The notes under the pieces: model-generated
Databases searched by the model: none
What the model was told of the DNA's origin: nothing
Seen by the model: the letters and a program-made list of their open reading frames with translations, nothing else
Translations under genes and position numbers: made by a program
Shown: positions 9,916 to 53,040 of the stretch, in pieces
Position numbering within the stretch: the first letter of the stretch is position 1
How the letters are laid out: every line of letters starts with the position of its first letter
Assembly (NCBI GenBank): GCA_030647355.1
Contig: JAUSIS010000013.1
Coordinates: 48,353-112,352, forward strand
DNA: 64,000 nt
Reading direction: 5' to 3'
Source of the DNA: a bacterium
GTDB taxonomy: Bacteria > Patescibacteriota > UBA1384 > VFKW01

Positions 9916-11796
9916 TTAATAATCTAGATTCTCTATCAAATGATTTGGAATATCATCAATAAATCGAGAGCGAAAATTTGTTTGCACCCCGCCATAGACA
10001 ATTCTAGTCAAAGCATAAGTCAGATATAACCGCTTCATCGCCCGGGTAATTCCTACATAACACAGGCGCCTCTCCTCCTCCAACTCATGTTCATCCATTA
10101 AGCTGCGAGAATGCGGAAAAATCCCCTCTTCCATTCCTGCTAAAAATACAGTCGGAAATTCTAAACCCTTTGCTGAATGCATAGTCATCAGAGTCACAGC
10201 ATCCGCACTTTCGTCATAACTGTCAATATCGGAAATGAGCGCCGCTTGCTCTAAAAATTCATCCAAATTATCCAATAAGCTAGCTACATTCATCAGTTCC
10301 TCAATATTTTCCCATCTCCCCTGCCCCTCAATTGTTCCGTCTAAAATAAAATTCTTATATCCTGTCATATCTAGAACTAATCTAATCAATTCGCCAACCT
10401 TCACGCCCTTTGATTTTTCCCGTAACCCTTCAATCATCTTCCAAAATATTTGGATCTTTGGATTTTCACTTTGAGATTTGTCCGCCAGCTGGCGGATTGA
10501 ATTTTGAGCTTTTGGTCCTATTCCTCTGGACGGAACATTAATTATCCGGCGCAGACTTACTTCATCAAGCGGATTGACTATCACCCTTAAGTAAGCCAAG
10601 ATATCCTTTACTTCTTTTCGATCATAAAAGCGAAGCGCCCCGATAACTTTATATGGCACTCGCAGTTTCAACAAACTCTCCTCAAATATGCGTGATTGGG
10701 CATTTGTTCTATATAAAATAGCAAAATCGTTCAAGTTCATACCAGCTTGGCGCAACGCCAACATCTCTGAAATAATAAATTCGCTCTCTTCCTCTCCCGA
10801 TCGCCCCTGAAATACAACAATTGGCACTCCGATAACGTTATCTGTCCATAAGTCTTTAACTGTCCTGTTTCTATTTTTCTCAATGATCATCTGTGCTGCT
10901 TCCAGAATGTTCTTGGTCGATCGGTAATTTTGCTCCAACTTAAATACTTTTGCATCGGGATAATCTTTTTCAAAATTCAAAATATTCTTAAAATTCGCTC
11001 CCCTCCATCCATAGATTGCCTGATAATCATCTCCAACAACACAAATATTATAATGTTTATCGGCTAAAAGTTTTGTTAATTTATACTGCGCCTCATTCGT
11101 ATCCTGGTACTCATCTATCAAGATATATTTGAAAAGGGATTGATATTTTTCCAACACCTCCGGATTATTCTCCAGTAGCAAAACCGTCTGCATGATAAGA
11201 TCATCGAAATCCATTGCCTGCGAAACTCTCAAAGCGCTTTGATACTCTTTGTACACTCGCGTCACTATCTCTTGAAAATGACCATTGGCATACTTCTCAT
11301 ACTCCCCGGGGCCTAAAAGCTCATTTTTCGCTCCTGAAATAAACGAAATAACCGCTTGTGGCGAATATTGCTTTATATCAATCCCTAATTTCTTCATTAC
11401 ATTCTTGGTCAAAACCAATGAGTCTTGGCTATCATATATAGAAAAATTCGAACTGAATCCAATATATTTTGCCTCCCTCCTTAAAATCTTGACGCATATC
11501 GAATGAAAAGTACCCATCCAAGGAAGCTTGGAAATCCCAGATTGCCCCGTACCTGGACGGGAAATCGCAAGCAGCCGATTAACTCGATCAATTAATTCAC
11601 GCGCTGCTTTATTGGTAAAAGTTATAGCTAAAATATGATATGGCGAGACTTTTTTCATTTGTATTAAATATGCCATCCGATGAGCCAAACATCGGGTTTT
11701 ACCACTACCGGCCCCTGCCAATATTAAAATCGGGCCATCCCCGGCAATGACTGCCTCTCGCTGTTTTGTATTCAACTCGTTAAGTAAATCCGACAT
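9916..11796 (-). CDS. pcrA: ATP-dependent DNA helicase PcrA/UvrD (compact form)
   Basis: Walker A motif GAGSGKTR and UvrD helicase motifs I-VI (DEYQDTN, QNYRST, TMHSAKGLEF). It contains the in-frame palindromic-element insertion at 10470-10511. Confidence 0.85.
   Translation of the reverse strand: MSDLLNELNTKQREAVIAGDGPILILAGAGSGKTRCLAHRMAYLIQMKKVSPYHILAITFTNKAARELIDRVNRLLAISRPGTGQSGISKLPWMGTFHSICVKILRREAKYIGFSSNFSIYDSQDSLVLTKNVMKKLGIDIKQYSPQAVISFISGAKNELLGPGEYEKYANGHFQEIVTRVYKEYQSALRVSQAMDFDDLIMQTVLLLENNPEVLEKYQSLFKYILIDEYQDTNEAQYKLTKLLADKHYNICVVGDDYQAIYGWRGANFKNILNFEKDYPDAKVFKLEQNYRSTKNILEAAQMIIEKNRNRTVKDLWTDNVIGVPIVVFQGRSGEEESEFIISEMLALRQAGMNLNDFAILYRTNAQSRIFEESLLKLRVPYKVIGALRFYDRKEVKDILAYLRVIVNPLDEVSLRRIINVPSRGIGPKAQNSIRQLADKSQSENPKIQIFWKMIEGLREKSKGVKVGELIRLVLDMTGYKNFILDGTIEGQGRWENIEELMNVASLLDNLDEFLEQAALISDIDSYDESADAVTLMTMHSAKGLEFPTVFLAGMEEGIFPHSRSLMDEHELEEERRLCYVGITRAMKRLYLTYALTRIVYGGVQTNFRSRFIDDIPNHLIENLDY
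10470..10511. repeat. palindromic element inserted in-frame in pcrA (encodes AQNSIRQLADKSQ)
   Basis: Perfect palindrome tccgccagctggcgga at 10481-10496. The surrounding stretch of about 42 bp is near-identical to 43717-43760 inside nifS. Confidence 0.6.
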
Positions 11797-11975
11797 CTTT
11801 ACCTCATTAACCTAAATATTATAAATCAGCATCCCTAAAATTACCACTAAGATACTATTGTCAATAAAAAATAAGTGTGCTAAGTTGAAAACACTATGAA
11901 TAAAGTAACGACCCTCGGTCTAATTCTATTGCTTAAACTGACTTGCGCCAGGTGATTTTTTCATAGCAACCAAAG

Positions 11976-12007
11976 GAAAAACCGGCTGGCAAGCCGGCTT
12001 TTTGTTT
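11976..12007 (+). terminator. rho-independent terminator
   Basis: Hairpin ccggc-tggcaa-gccgg followed by ctttttgttt. Confidence 0.5.
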
Positions 12008-12075
12008 ATCCGTGGAGATCTCGCCACTATCGGGATCTCAACGAGGTTCACAAAAAAATTCGCCGGAGGGAAAAC

Positions 12076-12408
12076 TTGATAAACCAAAATGGACCATATT
12101 CAGATTTGCCGACCCAGCTTGTCCGCAGCTATCTCTGGATAAAGGGTTGCCGCTTGCCAGAATGGATCACTATCCCCCAACGCTCCAACCCATGTTGTAA
12201 TGGCAACAACTACGGTCATACCAACCTTACAGCCGCCAGCAATGGGGGCATCAAACCCCTAAACCGCGCCTACTGTCCTATCTGTGGTGCGATATACAGT
12301 AGAAGCGGCAAGACGATTCAGATTCATAACCCTAATGGGACAGGTACAAAAATCAAGATTCAAGTATTTGTCCCGACTGGACGAAGCGCTGCCGACAGAG
12401 CAGGCTAA
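12076..12408 (+). CDS. hypothetical Cys-containing small protein (TTG start)
   Basis: TTG start 5 nt downstream of ggaggg. 110 aa with a CPICG / CC motif. GC-rich relative to surroundings, and followed directly by a terminator. No homology recognised. Confidence 0.3.
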   Translation: MINQNGPYSDLPTQLVRSYLWIKGCRLPEWITIPQRSNPCCNGNNYGHTNLTAASNGGIKPLNRAYCPICGAIYSRSGKTIQIHNPNGTGTKIKIQVFVPTGRSAADRAG

Positions 12409-12423
12409 CATCCCAACCTCCAT

Positions 12424-12448
12424 GACGCCTTCGGGCGTCTCTTTTTAT
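12424..12448 (+). terminator. rho-independent terminator
   Basis: Hairpin gacgcc-ttcg-ggcgtc followed by tctttttat. Confidence 0.55.
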
Positions 12449-12591
12449 ACTATTGCATTATTTACGAAAGCTGATAATATATAAACACAATGAAAACTAT
12501 CTTATCAAGCAATTGGTTTTTCGGTTATTGGTTCTTTGGGCGCCACTCGACCAGTTGTCTTTGCATAAGTTAGATTAAATAACAATTCTGC

Positions 12592-12624
12592 AAAAAACTG
12601 GCCGGGCGGCCAGTTTTTATTTAT
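12592..12624 (+). terminator. rho-independent terminator
   Basis: Hairpin ctggccg-ggc-ggccag followed by tttttatttat. Confidence 0.5.
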
Positions 12625-12636
12625 CCATCGGGATCT

Positions 12637-12654
12637 ATCCGCCAGCTAGCGGAT
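12637..12654. repeat. palindrome family member (atccgccagctagcggat)
   Basis: 18-bp perfect palindrome with a gctagc centre, a variant of the ccgccagctggcgg family. It lies inside the 5' leader of the 12708 ORF. Confidence 0.5.
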
Positions 12655-12707
12655 CGGATCTCGACGAGATGAATAACCTTAATAATCAATCCCGCGGAGG
12701 AAAACGA

Positions 12708-13181
12708 ATGTCAACAGCCAGAACCAATACGAATCAGACAATTTTCCAAAAAGACGGGCAAACAGTCGCCGTTCTAGGAGAATTGGATCCAGAAACAACT
12801 CTGATCTACTGCCTTCCGTCTGCCGAATCTGTCCCCGCTCAAGTAGAAGATAACCCGAAGCTAGTTCTCGCCCCTGTCTTCCGCCCCATTCCTCACATCG
12901 AGCCGAAAGCATATGCTCGCCAAACCGAGGGCATAGTTCTTCTCCCTCTCAAAGTCGGCAATTACCAACTCAAAACCGTCGCCATCGAGCTCAGCCCGTC
13001 CTTAACCTCGCTTCCACCCCACCTCATCTTCGATGGCTACGACCACCCCAGGGGTAAAGACGGTCAAGTTTTCCGCCTGACCAGTCAATCAATCACTATT
13101 TTCAGCCTGAGAATCCACTGCGCCGTGGGTGAACGCCCAGTCTACCGACTTGAAGAAAAAAAGGAGGATACATCATGCTAA
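12708..13181 (+). CDS. hypothetical protein (GC-rich island ORF 2)
   Basis: ATG at 12708 preceded by ggagg at 6 nt. The upstream in-frame ATG at 12669 lacks an RBS. About 55% GC codon usage, unlike neighbouring genes. No recognisable domain. Confidence 0.45.
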   Translation: MSTARTNTNQTIFQKDGQTVAVLGELDPETTLIYCLPSAESVPAQVEDNPKLVLAPVFRPIPHIEPKAYARQTEGIVLLPLKVGNYQLKTVAIELSPSLTSLPPHLIFDGYDHPRGKDGQVFRLTSQSITIFSLRIHCAVGERPVYRLEEKKEDTSC

Positions 13182-13429
13182 CCAGTCAGGCAAATACCGA
13201 TACCAGCATTCCCCCCGAGGTCAGCTCCAAAGTCCATGAACTAAGTGTTCAATTCGCTCGTCTCTGCTCTTCCGACGACCCCCAAAGCCCAGCCAAACTA
13301 GTTGAGTCGCTGCGCGAGATAGTCCAGATCGCCGACGAATACCCCCAAGCCACGCCTGCAATCGCCAGGGCTCTCTGGCAATCCTGCCATCGCCCAACTA
13401 GAGCCGGCTGGGGAGGAAGCCCTCGCTGA
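13175..13429 (+). CDS. hypothetical protein (GC-rich island ORF 3)
   Basis: ATG preceded by aaggagga. Overlaps the upstream ORF by 7 nt, suggesting translational coupling. Followed by a terminator. Confidence 0.45.
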   Translation: MLTSQANTDTSIPPEVSSKVHELSVQFARLCSSDDPQSPAKLVESLREIVQIADEYPQATPAIARALWQSCHRPTRAGWGGSPR

Positions 13430-13461
13430 AGTCCTCTATCCAACTAACCCCCGCCCAGCTT

Positions 13462-13496
13462 TTCATCAAAGGGCTGGGCTTTTTTCATACAAAACA
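13462..13496 (+). terminator. rho-independent terminator
   Basis: Hairpin gcccagc-ttttcatcaaagg-gctgggc followed by tttttt. Confidence 0.55.
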
Positions 13497-13790
13497 AAAA
13501 GCGCGAAGTCGAATTGTCAGCCTAATAATATTTTAAATTAATGCTGTTCGTCGCGCTCTTTGTTTAATGAGACTACACTCCCTAGAATAACATGTCGTTA
13601 GCCTAAGAAGTCATCCCCCTCCTTACTTAGTAAGGAAAGGATAAACCAAATCACTTGGACTATCCCTTCATCACTACTTTTGTAAATGTTCCTTTTCAGT
13701 GAATTAAGATATCATATCAATACAGCAACCCCATGTCAACACCACCAGCTAACCAAACATTCAACCTTATAAAAATAAAACCTGCCTAAG

Positions 13791-13828
13791 TTATCCACAG
13801 GCAGTCATTACAGAAATAGTTATCCACA
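13791..13828. promoter_or_regulatory. two consensus DnaA boxes (TTATCCACA) 21 bp apart
   Basis: ttatccaca at 13791-13799 and 13820-13828. They lie in an AT-rich 350-bp spacer just 3' of dnaB. The palindrome tccgccagctggcgga follows at 13835-13850. Confidence 0.4.
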
Positions 13829-13853
13829 GTCAATCCGCCAGCTGGCGGACCGA

Positions 13854-15233
13854 CTATCCGCTTGCTGAAATTTTCCTGTGATCCAAATTGCCAAACTTCG
13901 TCTGTTCAGGAATAAAATAGAGCTTAATATCACCGATCGGACCATTACGATGTTTACGTACTAAAATATCTGCAATATTCTTATTTTCCGTTTCTTTATT
14001 GTAATAATCCTCGCGATAAATGAACATAACCACATCCGCATCCTGCTCGATACTTCCGCTCTCCCGCAAATCGGATAACTGAGGAATCTTTCTATCCCTC
14101 TGCTCCACTGCCCTTGATAACTGCGACAGAGCAACTACCGGAATATTCAATTCTCTGGCTAGTGCCTTCAGTGATCGGGAAATCTCCGATACTTCCTGGA
14201 CACGATTAGCATCATTCCCGTGAGAGCTTCGCCCCTCCATTAGTTGCAAATAATCAATAATTACCAAACCCAACCCGTGCTCAACCTGTAGCCGACGCGC
14301 CTTAGCCCGTATCTCCATAACCGAAAGCATCGGCGAATCATCAATAAATATTGGCGCTTCTGCCAGCTCTCCCATCGCTTCTCCGATTTTTCTAAAATCA
14401 TCCTCTGCTAGCTCCCCTTTTCTAAGCCTCCAGGAATCAACCCCCGCCTGCATACAAAGCAACCGATCCACTATCTGATCTCTTGACTGCTCCAATGAAA
14501 ACAAACCCACTGGCACCTTATGCTTAACCGCCGCATATTCAGCAATATTCAAAACAAAGCTGGTTTTACCCATACTGGGACGAGCAGCAATTATGACTAA
14601 ATCTGATTTTTGTAATCCGGATATCAATCCATCTAACTCCTTAAACCCTGTCGGTACACCCCTTAAAGTACCTTTATTTTTATGCAACTCGTCTATTCTA
14701 TCAAATGACTCCTCGAGTACCGATTTTATAGGAACAAAATTATCACTGGTAAATTTCTGGCTGATTGAAAATATAGTGCTTTCCGCTTTATCCAAAACCT
14801 CGGCAATATCGGCAGTTTCATTAAATCCCAGCTCAATTATTGTCGAAGACGCATGTATTAGTCGTCGAAGTGTTGCTTTATGACGAACGATCTCCGCATA
14901 CTTGGCAACATGCGCCGAAGAAGGTACTCCATTAACCAGCGAGGACAGGTACGCCGCTCCTCCTACTTCTTTCAGTTTTTTTCTTGTCTCCAGTTCATTC
15001 GTCAGAGTTACCAAATCAATTGGCGATCTTTTTTCAAATAAAACCAACATAATTTCATAAATCAACTTATGGTCATCACGGTAAAAATTCTCGCTATTCA
15101 AAATGTCCACTACTTTCAATATAGCGTCTTTGTCCAGTAAGATTGCCCCAAGAACTGACTGTTCTGCCTCAATATTTTGGGGGGGGATTTTAGAAGGCAG
15201 CTCGCTTTTCGCCACTAATCCTCCAAGCGTCAA
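13854..15233 (-). CDS. dnaB: replicative DNA helicase
   Basis: N-terminal PQNIEAEQSVLGAILLD. Walker A ARPSMGKTSF. Motifs typical of DnaB (SLEQSRDQI, GLVIIDYLQLM). Confidence 0.9.
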   Translation of the reverse strand: MTLGGLVAKSELPSKIPPQNIEAEQSVLGAILLDKDAILKVVDILNSENFYRDDHKLIYEIMLVLFEKRSPIDLVTLTNELETRKKLKEVGGAAYLSSLVNGVPSSAHVAKYAEIVRHKATLRRLIHASSTIIELGFNETADIAEVLDKAESTIFSISQKFTSDNFVPIKSVLEESFDRIDELHKNKGTLRGVPTGFKELDGLISGLQKSDLVIIAARPSMGKTSFVLNIAEYAAVKHKVPVGLFSLEQSRDQIVDRLLCMQAGVDSWRLRKGELAEDDFRKIGEAMGELAEAPIFIDDSPMLSVMEIRAKARRLQVEHGLGLVIIDYLQLMEGRSSHGNDANRVQEVSEISRSLKALARELNIPVVALSQLSRAVEQRDRKIPQLSDLRESGSIEQDADVVMFIYREDYYNKETENKNIADILVRKHRNGPIGDIKLYFIPEQTKFGNLDHRKISASG

Positions 15234-15297
15234 TTATTAATTCCACGATAACCATTCAAGCTTACTATGTCAAACATCCTTGCTTGGCCTTCAAGTC

Positions 15298-15326
15298 TTG
15301 ACATAATGTTCCAAAACATGTAATAT
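15298..15326 (+). promoter_or_regulatory. near-consensus sigma70 promoter
   Basis: TTGACA at 15298-15303, a 17-bp spacer, then TAATAT at 15321-15326, with a TG dinucleotide just upstream of the -10. Confidence 0.45.
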
Positions 15327-15333
15327 ATAATAG

Positions 15334-15556
15334 CTTATCTAGCCGGTAATACAGGTTAGGTCGGCACATGCTTGGTGTTAAATCACCAAATCTTCATCTA
15401 CACCCGAGAGATCGAGGTGATGCAACACCAAGCATCTAATACACCCAGCCGAAGGTATATTCTGCACTCATCCCTGCCCCCTTCGGCAAAATCCCCTGCT
15501 CGCCCCGTCTGTGGGGCTGGCCCGGCGCGCAAGCGCGCCGGGCCTCAATTTTTATT
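15334..15556 (+). ncRNA. candidate small structured RNA (about 220 nt; identity unresolved, SRP- or 6S-like possibilities)
   Basis: Bounded by the promoter above and a strong terminator (ggcccggcgcgc-aag-cgcgccgggcc plus T-run at 15519-15556). It contains a long imperfect hairpin atgcttggtgtt...aacaccaagcat (about 15368-15430). No plausible ORF. Convergent with dnaX. Confidence 0.35.
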
Positions 15557-15567
15557 AAAAAGCTTAG

Positions 15568-42603: not shown

Positions 42604-43047
42604 TTAAATATTTTCCTGTTCATTATCAATTCTTCTAGATTTATAGTTCACAATCGCCGCTCGAAGGGCTTGATCGCCCAAAACCGAACAGTGTATTTTG
42701 CGAGCGGGCAGCCCGTCTAGCTTCGACACTATATCCTGGGGACGGATCTTCCCGGCCTCCTCAAGGGTCATTCCGGTTACCATCTCCGACATAACAGAAG
42801 TAGAGGCAATAGCTGAAGCGCACCCAAAGGTCTGCCATTTGCACTCGGTTATCCTATCTTTGGCTACTTTGATAAAAACTCTCATAAGATCGCCGCAAGC
42901 CGGGCTTCCAACCTCTCCCACACCATCAAACTGGTGAATATCAATTTTACCCGAAATAAAATTGCGGGGATTTAAAAAGTGATCCTTAACCTTATCCGAA
43001 TAGACCCAACCCGCACCATCCTGAGAAATGTCAGGTAATTTACTCAT
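42604..43047 (-). CDS. iscU: Fe-S cluster assembly scaffold (NifU/IscU/SufU-type)
   Basis: Conserved Cys triad context GSPACGDLMRVF ... CASAIAS ... HCSVLGDQA. Confidence 0.8.
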   Translation of the reverse strand: MSKLPDISQDGAGWVYSDKVKDHFLNPRNFISGKIDIHQFDGVGEVGSPACGDLMRVFIKVAKDRITECKWQTFGCASAIASTSVMSEMVTGMTLEEAGKIRPQDIVSKLDGLPARKIHCSVLGDQALRAAIVNYKSRRIDNEQENI

Positions 43048-44372
43048 ATTTTCTCCTTATCGCTTCTAATTGCCGAGATACTCCTTAGACGTGAAACGAC
43101 AGATGGCAGTACCGCCAAGACATAATCTATATCTTGTTTAGTTGTCCTGCGGCCAAGACTAAACCTTAAACTACCATGCGCTCCCTCATGTGACAAACCA
43201 ATTGCCTTCAAGACATGAGATGGCTCCAAACTATCAGAATTGCACGCCGAACCCGTTGAAACAGCTATCCCTTCCTCGTCAAGCATCAGCACCATCGCCT
43301 CCCCTTCTACACCATAAAAACTAAAATTAGCATTTCCCGGCAATCTATTAACCTTTGAGCCATTTAAACCGGTGTTGCTTATCCGAGTCAATACCCCATC
43401 AATCAGATAATCACGTAATTTTGCTAATCGGGCAGACTCCCCTGTCCTCTCTCTGTCAGCTATCTTGAGCGCTTCCGTAAACCCGACAATCCCTAGAATA
43501 TTCTCTGTTCCACTTCTTAATCCACCTTGCTGACCACCGCCAAAGATAACAGGTTGTATCTTTACCCCATTTCGCACATACAAAATCCCTATACCCGTCG
43601 GGCCATAAATCTTCGTGCCATTCGAGGTTAACAAATCAACATTTAACCTGTTAACATCCAAATCTAAATATCCAGCGGCTTGACAAGCATCGGTATGAAA
43701 ATATATCTTTCCATTATTTTGAGATTTGTCCGCCAGCTGGCGGATTGATTTTTGAGTTTTCAGCCAATTACCAATTTCGGCGATTGGCTGTACTGTTCCT
43801 ATCTCATTATTGGCATACATTATCGAAATTAAGATGGTTTCAGGTCGAATAGCCTGCTTTATATCTTCTAATTTAACCAGCCCATCCTTATCCACCGGTA
43901 GATATGTAACTTCAAACCCCTCTGATTCTAACTGTTTACAGGCGTTAAGCACAGCATGATGCTCAAATTGAGTAGTAATAATATGCCCTTTACATCTAGA
44001 TTCTGAATTCTGGAACATGGAATTAAGTTTGGAATTTTGAACATCAGAATTTTGGATTTGTTTAGAATTTAGAATTTCGGATTTAGAGTTTGCTCTGGCC
44101 ACCCCCAAAATTGCCAGATTATCACTCTCAGTCCCTCCGGAAGTAAAAACTATCTCATCGCTTTGGCAGTGGAGTATCCAGGAAATTTCCGTCCTGCAGT
44201 CACCTATTTTATCCCTTGTCGCCCTTCCTCTTGTATAAATACTAGACGGATTACCGTAACCTCCCTTTAAATAAGGTTCCATCGCCAAAAATACTCTCTT
44301 ATCGAGAGGTGCCAAAGCCGCATGATCTAAATAAACTTCTCTTCTTTCCATCTTTCCCTCATCATTACTCAA
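43044..44372 (-). CDS. nifS: cysteine desulfurase (NifS/IscS) with two in-frame insertions
   Basis: PLP-dependent class V fold. The active-site loop SGSACNS (catalytic Cys) is present. TTG start with an open frame. Contains a low-complexity insertion (43995-44095) and the palindromic element (43717-43760). Confidence 0.85.
   Translation of the reverse strand: MSNDEGKMERREVYLDHAALAPLDKRVFLAMEPYLKGGYGNPSSIYTRGRATRDKIGDCRTEISWILHCQSDEIVFTSGGTESDNLAILGVARANSKSEILNSKQIQNSDVQNSKLNSMFQNSESRCKGHIITTQFEHHAVLNACKQLESEGFEVTYLPVDKDGLVKLEDIKQAIRPETILISIMYANNEIGTVQPIAEIGNWLKTQKSIRQLADKSQNNGKIYFHTDACQAAGYLDLDVNRLNVDLLTSNGTKIYGPTGIGILYVRNGVKIQPVIFGGGQQGGLRSGTENILGIVGFTEALKIADRERTGESARLAKLRDYLIDGVLTRISNTGLNGSKVNRLPGNANFSFYGVEGEAMVLMLDEEGIAVSTGSACNSDSLEPSHVLKAIGLSHEGAHGSLRFSLGRRTTKQDIDYVLAVLPSVVSRLRSISAIRSDKEKI
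43717..43760. repeat. palindromic element inserted in-frame in nifS (encodes TQKSIRQLADKSQ)
   Basis: tccgccagctggcgga at 43729-43744. Near-identical to 10470-10511. Confidence 0.6.
43995..44095. repeat. degenerate GAATTT-type microsatellite-like tract inside nifS
   Basis: Repeats of gaatt(t)tgga / agaattt. It encodes the low-complexity peptide SKSEILNSKQIQNSDVQNSKLNSMFQNSESR inside the NifS fold. Confidence 0.5.
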
Positions 44373-44373
44373 A

Positions 44374-44507
44374 GGTGAACTGTTTTATCGAAAGGTCTTT
44401 CGCAGGTGAGCAAGCATGGTTCCGCCAACTGGCGGATTGCGAACCGAGAATGAGCGACAATTTTCGCTGGAAAATTGTACGCGTGCCTTGAGATAAAATA
44501 TTTCACC
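44374..44507. repeat. TIR-flanked dispersed repeat, copy B, filling the nfu-nifS intergenic space
   Basis: Inverted repeats of about 22 bp: ggtgaactgttttatcgaaagg and ccttgagataaaatatttcacc. Core about 80% identical to copy A (7587-7720). Carries the palindrome variant tccgccaactggcgga at 44421-44436. Confidence 0.55.
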
Positions 44508-52611: not shown

Positions 52612-52817
52612 AAAACTATGTGCCTTATGGAGATGCTTTATCTTAGGTGTTGAGCAATCCTGGTGCTCGCAGTATGCCAGCTTTCCCTCCTTTGCTATTC
52701 TATCTTACAGAAGTTAATTCTGCCCGTCAACTGTTGAAAACCTGAAGGCAAACCGACGAAAACGGCCTTTCCTCCAATCAAGAATCAACAAGATAGCTGA
52801 AAAACTGCAAAAAGCTT

Positions 52818-53040
52818 CTAAATTTATTCTTCGAGTGTCGAACCGTGCGGAACAAAACTTATTCTTCGAGCGATCGGACTGTGCGGAAACTAAATTTATT
52901 CACCGAGCAGTCGAACACTACGGAAACTAAATTTATTCTTCGAGCGATCCGCCAACTGGCGGAAACTAAATTTATTCACCGAGCAGTCGAACACTACGGA
53001 AACTAAATTTATTCTTCGAGCGATCCGCCAACTGGCGGAG
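52818..53040. repeat. degenerate 37-38 bp tandem repeat array (about 6 units) upstream of the giant surface protein gene
   Basis: Units share the core aaactaaatttattc(tt/ac)cgag plus a 22-nt variable part. Two alternating unit types give a 76-bp super-period. Two units carry tccgccaactggcgga (52948-52963 and 53024-53039). Confidence 0.7.

Follow-up and report, generated by a model that had tools for sequence, protein, structure and literature searches.

Introduction

ORFan islets are short clusters of taxonomically restricted genes with atypical composition, and they are often ascribed to phages or to unknown donors. Most acquired DNA is AT-richer than the host. The work of Daubin and Ochman from 2004 is one example of the ORFan literature. 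Here we describe an islet of this kind at positions 11976-13496 (plus strand) of a 64,000-nt stretch of contig JAUSIS010000013.1, referred to below as the window, from a metagenome-assembled genome of the Patescibacteria (candidate phyla radiation, CPR). The islet lies within the 2,057-nt spacer between uvrD/pcrA and dnaB and carries three open reading frames (ORFs), named ORF1, ORF2 and ORF3. It resembles the described ORFan islets in having short genes without homologues, atypical GC content and codon usage, a position between housekeeping genes, and ribosome-binding sites (RBS) and terminators of its own. In contrast to them, it is GC-richer than its host, shows no phage or mobile signature, and has a duplicated, ordered 5' control module.

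Palindromic operators repeated before two units are found in C-protein restriction-modification systems and in type II toxin-antitoxin (TA) operons. The islet shares with these systems a dyad before two adjacent small units, one encoding a small basic putative DNA binder and the other a coupled gene pair. However, its proteins show no similarity to C-proteins, to helix-turn-helix (HTH) or ribbon-helix-helix (RHH) antitoxins, to toxins, methyltransferases or nucleases, and the promoters of the islet cannot be placed. A third comparison is with integron cassettes, their attC sites and the clusters of attC sites lacking integron-integrases (CALIN), which also consist of small, promoter-poor orphan ORFs in the same orientation, separated by foldable imperfect palindromes. 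Unlike these, the islet has no intI, no R''/L''-L'/R' organisation and no GTTRRRY core at either hairpin; its hairpins lie in an RBS-bearing 5' leader and exist in two copies only.

The explanation that we moderately favor is that of a foreign ORFan islet made of two insulated units, co-regulated because a duplicated control module is common to both, with a GATCT dyad acting as a common operator or as a stem-loop of the 5' untranslated region (5'-UTR) and the basic ORF1 protein as the candidate binder.

Two units behind a duplicated control module

The elements of the islet are the following:

11977-12002 (11982-11997 in the terminator scan), plus strand: T1, terminator-like hairpin with stem CCGGCT/AGCCGG and loop GGCA, an A-run before and a T-run after; opens control module 1
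12003-12050, plus strand: cassette 1, with a TTTATCC box, hairpin B1 (GAGATCTCG / CGGGATCTC, loop CCACTAT) and GGATCTCAACGAG at its end
12065-12069, plus strand: Shine-Dalgarno GGAGG, 6 nt before the ORF1 TTG
12076-12408, plus strand: ORF1 (Q7S37_04370, hypothetical protein in the PGAP annotation), TTG start, 110 amino acids, pI 9.8, 5 Cys
12424-12448 (12424-12439 in the scan), plus strand: T2, intrinsic terminator of the ORF1 unit, GACGCC-TTCG-GGCGTC followed by TCTTTTTAT, starting 16 nt past the ORF1 stop
12449-12592, plus strand: AT-rich spacer with modest structure and a promoter-like site at 12422-12451 (9/12 match)
12593-12618, plus strand: T3, terminator-like hairpin, CTGGCCG/CGGCCAG stem extended by an A-run and a T-run; opens control module 2
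12619-12675, plus strand: cassette 2, with a TTTATCC box and a long hairpin B2 (TCGGGATCT ... GGATCTCGA) that has an extra inner stem
12696-12700, plus strand: Shine-Dalgarno GGAGG, 7 nt before the ORF2 ATG
12708-13181, plus strand: ORF2 (Q7S37_04375, hypothetical protein, PGAP), ATG start, 157 amino acids, pI 6.1, predicted beta-rich
13163-13167, plus strand: Shine-Dalgarno GGAGG within the end of ORF2, 7 nt before the ORF3 ATG
13175-13429, plus strand: ORF3 (Q7S37_04380, hypothetical protein, PGAP), ATG start, 84 amino acids, pI 6.0
13453-13485 (13453-13479 in the scan), plus strand: T4, 24 nt past the ORF3 stop, intrinsic terminator of the ORF2-ORF3 unit with an 11-pair stem and then TTTTTT

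A preliminary description of this DNA, made from its letters alone, had counted four intrinsic terminators, and all of them are real. The terminator scan found T1, T2 and T4, and skipped T3 only because its loop is 2 nt; T3 was recognised by its inverted-repeat arms (12 nt, 100% complementary, followed by TTTTTATTTAT). The same description had paired the two cassettes as paralogues. A global alignment of the segment from T1 to the ORF1 start with that from T3 to the ORF2 start supported this pairing (z = 13.4 relative to shuffles, and 10.2 without the terminators). Its further view of the cassettes as repeats flanking the island had to be abandoned, as they are instead paralogous 5' regions, one before each transcription unit; judged from this arrangement, the cassettes are a duplicated 5' control module ahead of each unit.

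The similarity spans 100-120 nt, from the upstream hairpin through the start codon, and the parts of the module come in the same order in both copies: hairpin A (T1 or T3), the TTTATCC box, hairpin B built on GATCT half-sites, RACGAG, an A-rich spacer of 20-30 nt, and the RBS in the context CGGAGG(G)AAAAC, followed by the start codon. Outside the two cassettes, neither GGATCTCRACGAG nor the G[AG]GATCT..GGATCTC hairpin is found in the window. Since GATC is self-complementary, the GGATCT...GGATCT direct repeats double as the two arms of the dyad. The minimum free energy of the hairpin is -20.8 kcal/mol in cassette 1 (z = -1.8) and -29.7 kcal/mol in cassette 2 (z = -2.8). The stems of T1 and T3 differ by two pair-preserving double substitutions, one from C-G to T-A and one from T-A to C-G, and because of these compensatory changes we infer that the stem of hairpin A is under selection. 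The DnaA-box-like TTATCC(A/G)T motifs that the preliminary description had pointed out in the cassettes are literally present, but they match the box at only 6/9 and 7/9 positions, and TTATCC itself is found 39 times against 38.8 expected.

We propose that three lineage-restricted genes arrived from a GC-richer donor into the uvrD/pcrA-dnaB spacer, where they would form two transcription units, ORF1 alone and the coupled ORF2 and ORF3, each closing at its own intrinsic terminator. The first hairpin of each module (T1 or T3) would insulate its unit from upstream read-through. Because both units share the duplicated control module they would be co-regulated, the common GATCT dyad serving as an operator or a 5'-UTR stem-loop that switches both at once. 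The basic ORF1 protein, with its putative zinc-knuckle, would be the most obvious candidate for binding this dyad; in support of such a role as a nucleic-acid binder are its pI of 9.8 and two weak zinc-finger matches that coincide at residues 62-92.

Base composition and origin of the islet

The GC content of the islet is 0.498, against a mean of 0.411 (standard deviation, sd, 0.033) for 1521-nt windows. An equal or higher value was reached by only 0.8% of the non-overlapping windows, all of them inside one fn3-repeat surface-protein gene at 49.5-51.4 kb. The GC content peaks at 0.533 over 12650-13480, with flanks of 0.389 and 0.424. The preliminary description was thus right in calling the island GC-rich, but its figures of 52-56% against 38% were too strong (49.8% against 41.1%, with 53% only at 12650-13480). 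The control regions take part in the excess, with 0.50 for T1 plus cassette 1 and 0.487 for T3 plus cassette 2, and the 184-nt inter-unit spacer (12409-12592) is host-like at 0.37.

The ORFs themselves have a GC content of 0.492 (ORF1), 0.511 (ORF2) and 0.580 (ORF3), which is 2.7, 3.3 and 5.5 host sd over the mean of 35 long host ORFs (0.408 +/- 0.031, maximum 0.471). At third codon positions (GC3) they reach 0.51-0.58, versus 0.381 +/- 0.049 in the host ORFs, whose maximum is 0.462. Their codon log-likelihood ratios are 0.014, 0.100 and 0.054, respectively, versus 0.208 +/- 0.034 for host genes, so that the codon usage of the islet falls far under every host gene but one. Both the GC and the codon-usage check therefore confirmed the deviation that had been anticipated. 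Because the GC3 excess is not explained by amino-acid content, the islet appears to derive from a more GC-rich, unsampled donor, and a foreign origin is plausible on compositional grounds.

Horizontally acquired cargo, as the preliminary description had it, is consequently upheld by the foreign composition and codon usage, but not by the other marks of acquisition, namely repeat flanking, mobility genes and tRNA or att borders. No integrase, transposase or recombinase gene lies within 10 kb of the islet. The tRNA genes of the window are at 41.1 and 57.7 kb, that is, 28 and 44 kb from it. No att-type junctions were found at the islet borders, and the sole edge repeat present at both of them is a 16/19 T-rich match (TTTTTTCATA...), which is at chance level. 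Comparison with PHROGs gave nothing significant, the protein scans of IMG/VR were negative, and so were the tblastn and blastn searches against the INPHARED phages and the PLSDB plasmids. The 17-nt 5' arm of the hairpin has nine matches in viral contigs, no more than roughly expected by chance, and these lie in unrelated contexts. Given that mobility genes are missing within 10 kb and that no phage, plasmid or viral-contig match was obtained, the suggestion of a small mobile module was not borne out.

A different explanation is that the genes are native, either fast-evolving or de novo, and were never transferred, the GC excess being the outcome of amino-acid usage (Pro, Ala, Gly and Arg) plus local mutation bias. 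Several features agree with it: a host-type palindrome inside the islet (see below), host-like AT-rich intergenic DNA, canonical host-style terminators, a GC skew of the same sign as the remainder of the window, and a native fn3-repeat gene that attains an equal local GC content. The GC3 values of the islet ORFs nevertheless exceed the host maximum, amino-acid content does not account for the excess, and the codon usage lies far below that of every host gene except one. We consider this origin improbable, even though it fares best among the alternatives.

Coding status and orphan character of the three ORFs

The three ORFs, their starts, their strong RBS and the coupling of ORF2 to ORF3 were all found as first described. 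The C-rich plus strand of the window has only 18 GGAGG motifs, three of which precede the islet start codons by 6-7 nt; most host genes have weaker ribosome-binding sites than the islet. The start of ORF3 overlaps the stop of ORF2 by 7 nt (ATGCTAA), an arrangement of translational coupling. The open frames are longer than those in local composition-matched shuffles (P = 0.016-0.018). ORF2 shows GC1/2/3 values of 0.59/0.41/0.53, and GC1 above GC2 is a coding-type pattern. For ORF2 and ORF3, RNA folding is no stronger than in shuffles (z = +0.86, +0.44 and -1.23). With Rfam 15, only two tRNAs reached the gathering score in the window and no family matched the ORFs even at E < 10; an RNA family covering the region was part of the result that the preliminary description had named as contrary to its proposal. 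The best sub-threshold Rfam match overlapping the islet (13443-13562, minus strand; 28 bits against a gathering score of 60 bits) belongs to a neighbouring small RNA and its terminator, not to the ORFs. Taken by these sequence signals, the three ORFs are probably real genes; ORF2 and ORF3 are very probably coding, and ORF1 probably is.

Each of the three proteins forms a singleton cluster among ~15 billion sequences, and a word-index search of 5.8 billion protein clusters returned only the proteins themselves. Comparisons with Pfam, PHROGs, PADLOC, NCBIfam and the PDB sequences gave nothing above threshold for ORF1-3, with no PADLOC match at E <= 1 for any of them, and the alternative reading frames of the islet had no homology matches. 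An exhaustive HMMER search of ORF2 against 1.84 billion representatives produced three marginal matches (E = 2e-4 to 9e-4), which were discarded as repeat-inflated, all three being internally repetitive proteins. One of these matches and Pfam DUF2963 (E = 0.09) share with ORF2 a hairpin-repeat-like motif at residues 8-31, 'F.(K/E)DG.T..(5-6 aa)..DPET', which is too weak for use. In ORF1, residues 62-92 (YCPICGAIYSRSGKTIQIH) are weakly similar to BED/C2H2 zinc fingers in two independent libraries, with a below-cut-off E value of 0.023 for zf-BED in Pfam and of 0.016 for PDB entry 1mey. The three proteins are lineage-restricted ORFans, in agreement with the original observation that they lack a recognisable domain. 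The idea of a defence-like module found no counterpart in PADLOC or in any other defence homology for the three proteins.

The small size and the linkage of these genes bring to mind a TA-like or small defence/addiction module, in which the palindromic cassette would mediate autoregulation of the ORF2/ORF3 pair, with ORF1 as an accessory regulator. The two small overlapping, co-terminated genes (157 and 84 amino acids) indeed lie behind a dyad-symmetric element, the same dyad is present on the second unit and the composition is foreign; the 7-nt overlap and the shared T4 are what is expected of the small adjacent genes of a type II TA system. On the other hand, neither a toxin fold or family nor an antitoxin DNA-binding domain was found in Pfam, NCBIfam, PADLOC, PHROGs or the PDB, and the three proteins had no match in any of these. 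Neither member of the pair bears the signature of a nuclease or of an HTH or RHH protein, the surroundings are single-copy housekeeping genes, and no homologue was found, although wide dispersal is the rule for TA and defence genes. Such a module is therefore doubtful, and somewhat more so than a native origin.

A dispersed palindrome in cassette 2 and elsewhere in the host

Dispersed palindromes are known in several bacteria and include the repetitive extragenic palindromic sequences and bacterial interspersed mosaic elements (REP/BIME), the cyanobacterial highly iterated palindrome HIP1, the uptake sequences of Neisseria and Haemophilus, and the Rickettsia palindromic elements (RPEs), which insert in-frame. 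The apex of hairpin B in cassette 2 (12638-12653, TCCGCCAGCTAGCGGA) is a copy of a palindrome dispersed throughout this host. The perfect 16-nt palindrome TCCGCCAGCTGGCGGA has eight copies in 64 kb, allowing at most one mismatch, against 0.08 expected; they are at 10481, 12638, 13834, 27029, 43729, 44421, 52948 and 53024. A 21-nt unit, TCAATCCGCCAGCTGGCGGAC, is identical (21/21) at three sites. One of its copies adjoins the islet:

13830-13850, plus strand: perfect palindrome unit TCAATCCGCCAGCTGGCGGAC, 4 nt past the dnaB stop and preceded by TTATCCACA

This copy is 73% identical to cassette 2 over 40 nt, and the 'TTATCC + palindrome' unit at 13820-13850 to which it belongs is a host element common with cassette 2, without the GATCT arms. 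Part of cassette 2 is thus host-type DNA by sequence; in cassette 1 only a degenerate remnant of the palindrome is seen at the aligned position. Because a host-type palindrome sits in cassette 2, the islet would have been resident for some time, or else its control regions would be host-derived.

The palindrome sits in intergenic hairpins, some of them just past genes, and also in-frame within genes, where it reads I-R-Q-L-A-D. Compared with solved structures of IscS, the IscS homologue has an in-frame insertion of ~15 residues that consists of the palindrome with its flanks, and in UvrD the I-R-Q-L-A-D peptide lies on a native helix. The copy at 44421 is between an Rrf2 regulator gene and iscS, and those at 52948 and 53024 are within a tandem array of ~38-nt units. 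The exact 16-mer is also present in two other, distant Patescibacteria loci (L003:9708 and L040:364), in one case in-frame in DnaX and in the other inside a partial tRNA-Lys duplicate.

Some of these sites have features of their own. At L040:200-420 there is a tRNA-Lys(UUU) gene and, behind it, an incomplete second copy in which the 16-nt palindrome takes the place of the 5' strand of the anticodon stem. The array at 52800-53040, located between the GTP cyclohydrolase I gene and the 1383-aa fn3-repeat gene, has ~6 tandem ~38-nt units (AAATTTATTCTTCGAGCGATCCGCCAACTGGCGGAAACT and variants), two of which carry an A-variant of the palindrome. The IscS-like protein (43044-44372, minus strand) has a second insertion of ~29 residues relative to solved IscS structures (residues ~91-119), a low-complexity, Q-, N- and S-rich stretch (SEILNSKQIQNSDVQNSKLNSMFQNSES) that divides the alignment into two blocks.

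The palindrome sequence was not found in the literature searched. It is like the known dispersed elements in being a perfect palindrome of 16-21 nt with many copies, located in intergenic hairpins and in-frame in genes; unlike them, it is unrelated in sequence to any, is much shorter than RPEs and longer than HIP1, and, in contrast to REP/BIME-type elements, no RAYT/TnpA gene was seen here. Its possible roles are those of a selfish palindromic element, of an uptake-type signal or of a global operator.

The dispersal of this core and its in-frame insertion in iscS give some ground to the view that the islet consists of mobile-element gene cassettes, the TTATCC-plus-hairpin units at 12005, 12620 and 13820 being recombination sites or element ends (attC- or IS200/IS605-like). 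Three such units, each a TTATCC with an imperfect palindrome and all in the same orientation, bracket both gene blocks, whose composition is foreign. Nonetheless, no integrase, Y1/HUH transposase, TnpB or other recombinase is encoded near the islet in the window, no GTTRRRY attC core was found at the hairpin borders, and the third unit has the host palindrome only, not the GATCT arms. Furthermore, the hairpins stand 5' of the genes with an RBS-bearing leader, as regulatory DNA does, and no further cassette-like copy was found in 2.2 Mb of Patescibacteria and other loci. We regard gene cassettes of this type as unlikely.

Neighbouring genes and structured RNAs

The features outside the islet are:

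9916-11796, minus strand: uvrD/pcrA
13490-13739, minus strand: candidate small RNA in a convergent unit, made of a strong sigma70-like promoter, ~200 nt without an ORF and its own terminator (~13497-13560)
13854-15233, minus strand: dnaB

Past dnaB come dnaX and then a type IV pilus cluster, and on the uvrD side lie metG, tatD, ksgA and rpf-like genes, so that the islet is surrounded by core, single-copy housekeeping genes. The DnaB protein of this host is nearest to those of Moranbacteria-type / 'ADurb.Bin212' genomes (65% identity among the GTDB species genomes), and in the nearest of these genomes there is no synteny downstream of dnaB. No close relative was found by the DnaB scan of the GTDB species genomes or by a UvrD scan of metagenomes, where the nearest contig has a UvrD of 51% identity. 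Exact-protein look-ups led to a single Logan contig (SRR13727527), and the organism was seen in one sample only. This contig is identical to the window across 12,711 nt with both islet junctions included; because an independent assembly is identical through both junctions, and with a host palindrome inside the islet, a chimera of assembly or binning was ruled out.

The promoter of the candidate small RNA (13739-13711, TTGACA-17-TATGAT with TG, 11/12) is the best sigma70-like one in the region. The predicted transcript (13490-13706, minus strand) folds with -68.7 kcal/mol (z = -6.2), it corresponds to no Rfam family, and it converges on T4, the terminator of ORF3. Another structured segment, 15290-15560 on the minus strand of the dnaX-dnaB spacer, has ~51% GC and -109.6 kcal/mol (z = -5.8), with no Rfam match at E <= 1, and is absent from the AT-rich dnaX-dnaB spacer of the relative L003. 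It would be quite unlikely, and the least probable of the explanations weighed here, for the GC-rich blocks of the islet to be structured RNAs or chance open frames as well: in AT-rich genomes, GC-rich intergenic blocks often turn out to be structured RNAs, the two segments just described (z = -6.2 and -5.8) are nearby, strongly structured and not in Rfam, and ORF1 has weak coding statistics with a folding z of -2.05, but the ORF2 and ORF3 segments fold no better than shuffles, three perfect GGAGG stand at the correct spacing, the start of ORF3 overlaps the stop of ORF2, the frame lengths have P < 0.02 against shuffles, and Rfam gives no match even at E < 10.

Two short AT-rich segments of the plus strand, 12449-12620 and 11890-12006, end in T3 and T1, respectively; they could be leaders, small RNAs or nothing. 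The first has a 26-codon aromatic- and Cys-rich ORF (MKTILSSNWFFGYWFFGRHSTSCLCI) with no RBS. Within it, the spacer at 12449-12592 may hold a small transcript or a leader ending at T3, and the segment 12475-12622 has a folding z of -2.9.

Perfect DnaA boxes (TTATCCACA) occur only twice in 64 kb, at 13791-13799 and 13820-13828, both outside the islet. They are 29 nt apart, in direct orientation, in the terminator region of dnaB, one of them in the loop of the terminator hairpin. This pair might be a DnaA-binding regulatory site; as the GC skew does not switch there, it does not stand out as an origin. In the islet itself neither DnaA 9-mers above chance nor a skew switch was found, and a replication origin was ruled out, the cumulative GC skew being monotonic over the window, without a switch, and that of the islet having the same sign as the remainder.

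Discussion

Several observations weigh against a foreign, co-regulated islet of three coding genes. Composition is the only positive evidence for a horizontal origin, and an apparently native gene, that of the fn3-repeat protein, matches the local GC content. The coding statistics of ORF1 are poor (GC1 below GC2, and a codon log-likelihood ratio of 0.014), and its RNA is mildly over-structured (z = -2.05). As there are no homologues, its predicted translation and those of ORF2 and ORF3 have no support from conservation, from the ratio of nonsynonymous to synonymous substitutions (dN/dS) or from covariation, and the AlphaFold2 single-sequence models were unusable (pLDDT 31.7 for ORF2 and 33.0 for ORF1). 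The zinc-finger signal of ORF1, on which the proposed binding of the dyad leans, is under every curated threshold.

The promoters raise a further point of this kind. No conserved sigma70 -35/-10 pair could be aligned inside both cassettes, nor does cassette 1 offer a convincing sigma70 promoter in the interval from hairpin A to the RBS. Promoter-like sites do exist upstream of T3 (12422-12451) and, weaker and detected by eye, upstream of T1. Promoters upstream of T1 and T3 may make these hairpins attenuators instead of insulators. Two arrangements can thus be considered: hairpin A may insulate its unit from read-through, with the dyad as an operator overlapping a weak promoter, or it may be an attenuator inside a longer leader.

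Even with these points in view, a foreign ORFan islet with two units under one duplicated control module is the explanation that we retain. A bolder proposal would take the 'terminator + GATCT hairpin' units together with the TCCGCCAGCTGGCGGA palindrome as an undescribed cassette-type system of gene delivery or regulation in Patescibacteria, in which ORFan units are captured beside replication genes and a zinc-finger ORF1 controls an ORF2/ORF3 effector pair, for instance one of addiction or defence; we hold this to be a long shot, on a par with the mobile gene cassettes. As ORFan islets go this one is ordinary, if neatly equipped with a duplicated regulatory module, and nothing in it marks a mechanistic novelty.

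The palindrome came as a by-product of this work and may outweigh the islet itself, since it is dispersed, occurs in-frame in housekeeping genes and is shared with distant Patescibacteria. As for the islet, it adds three proteins without an assigned function to the large 'dark' gene pool of the CPR and, if foreign as we propose, its compactness would make it a handy test case of how the reduced genomes of episymbionts install and regulate new genes.

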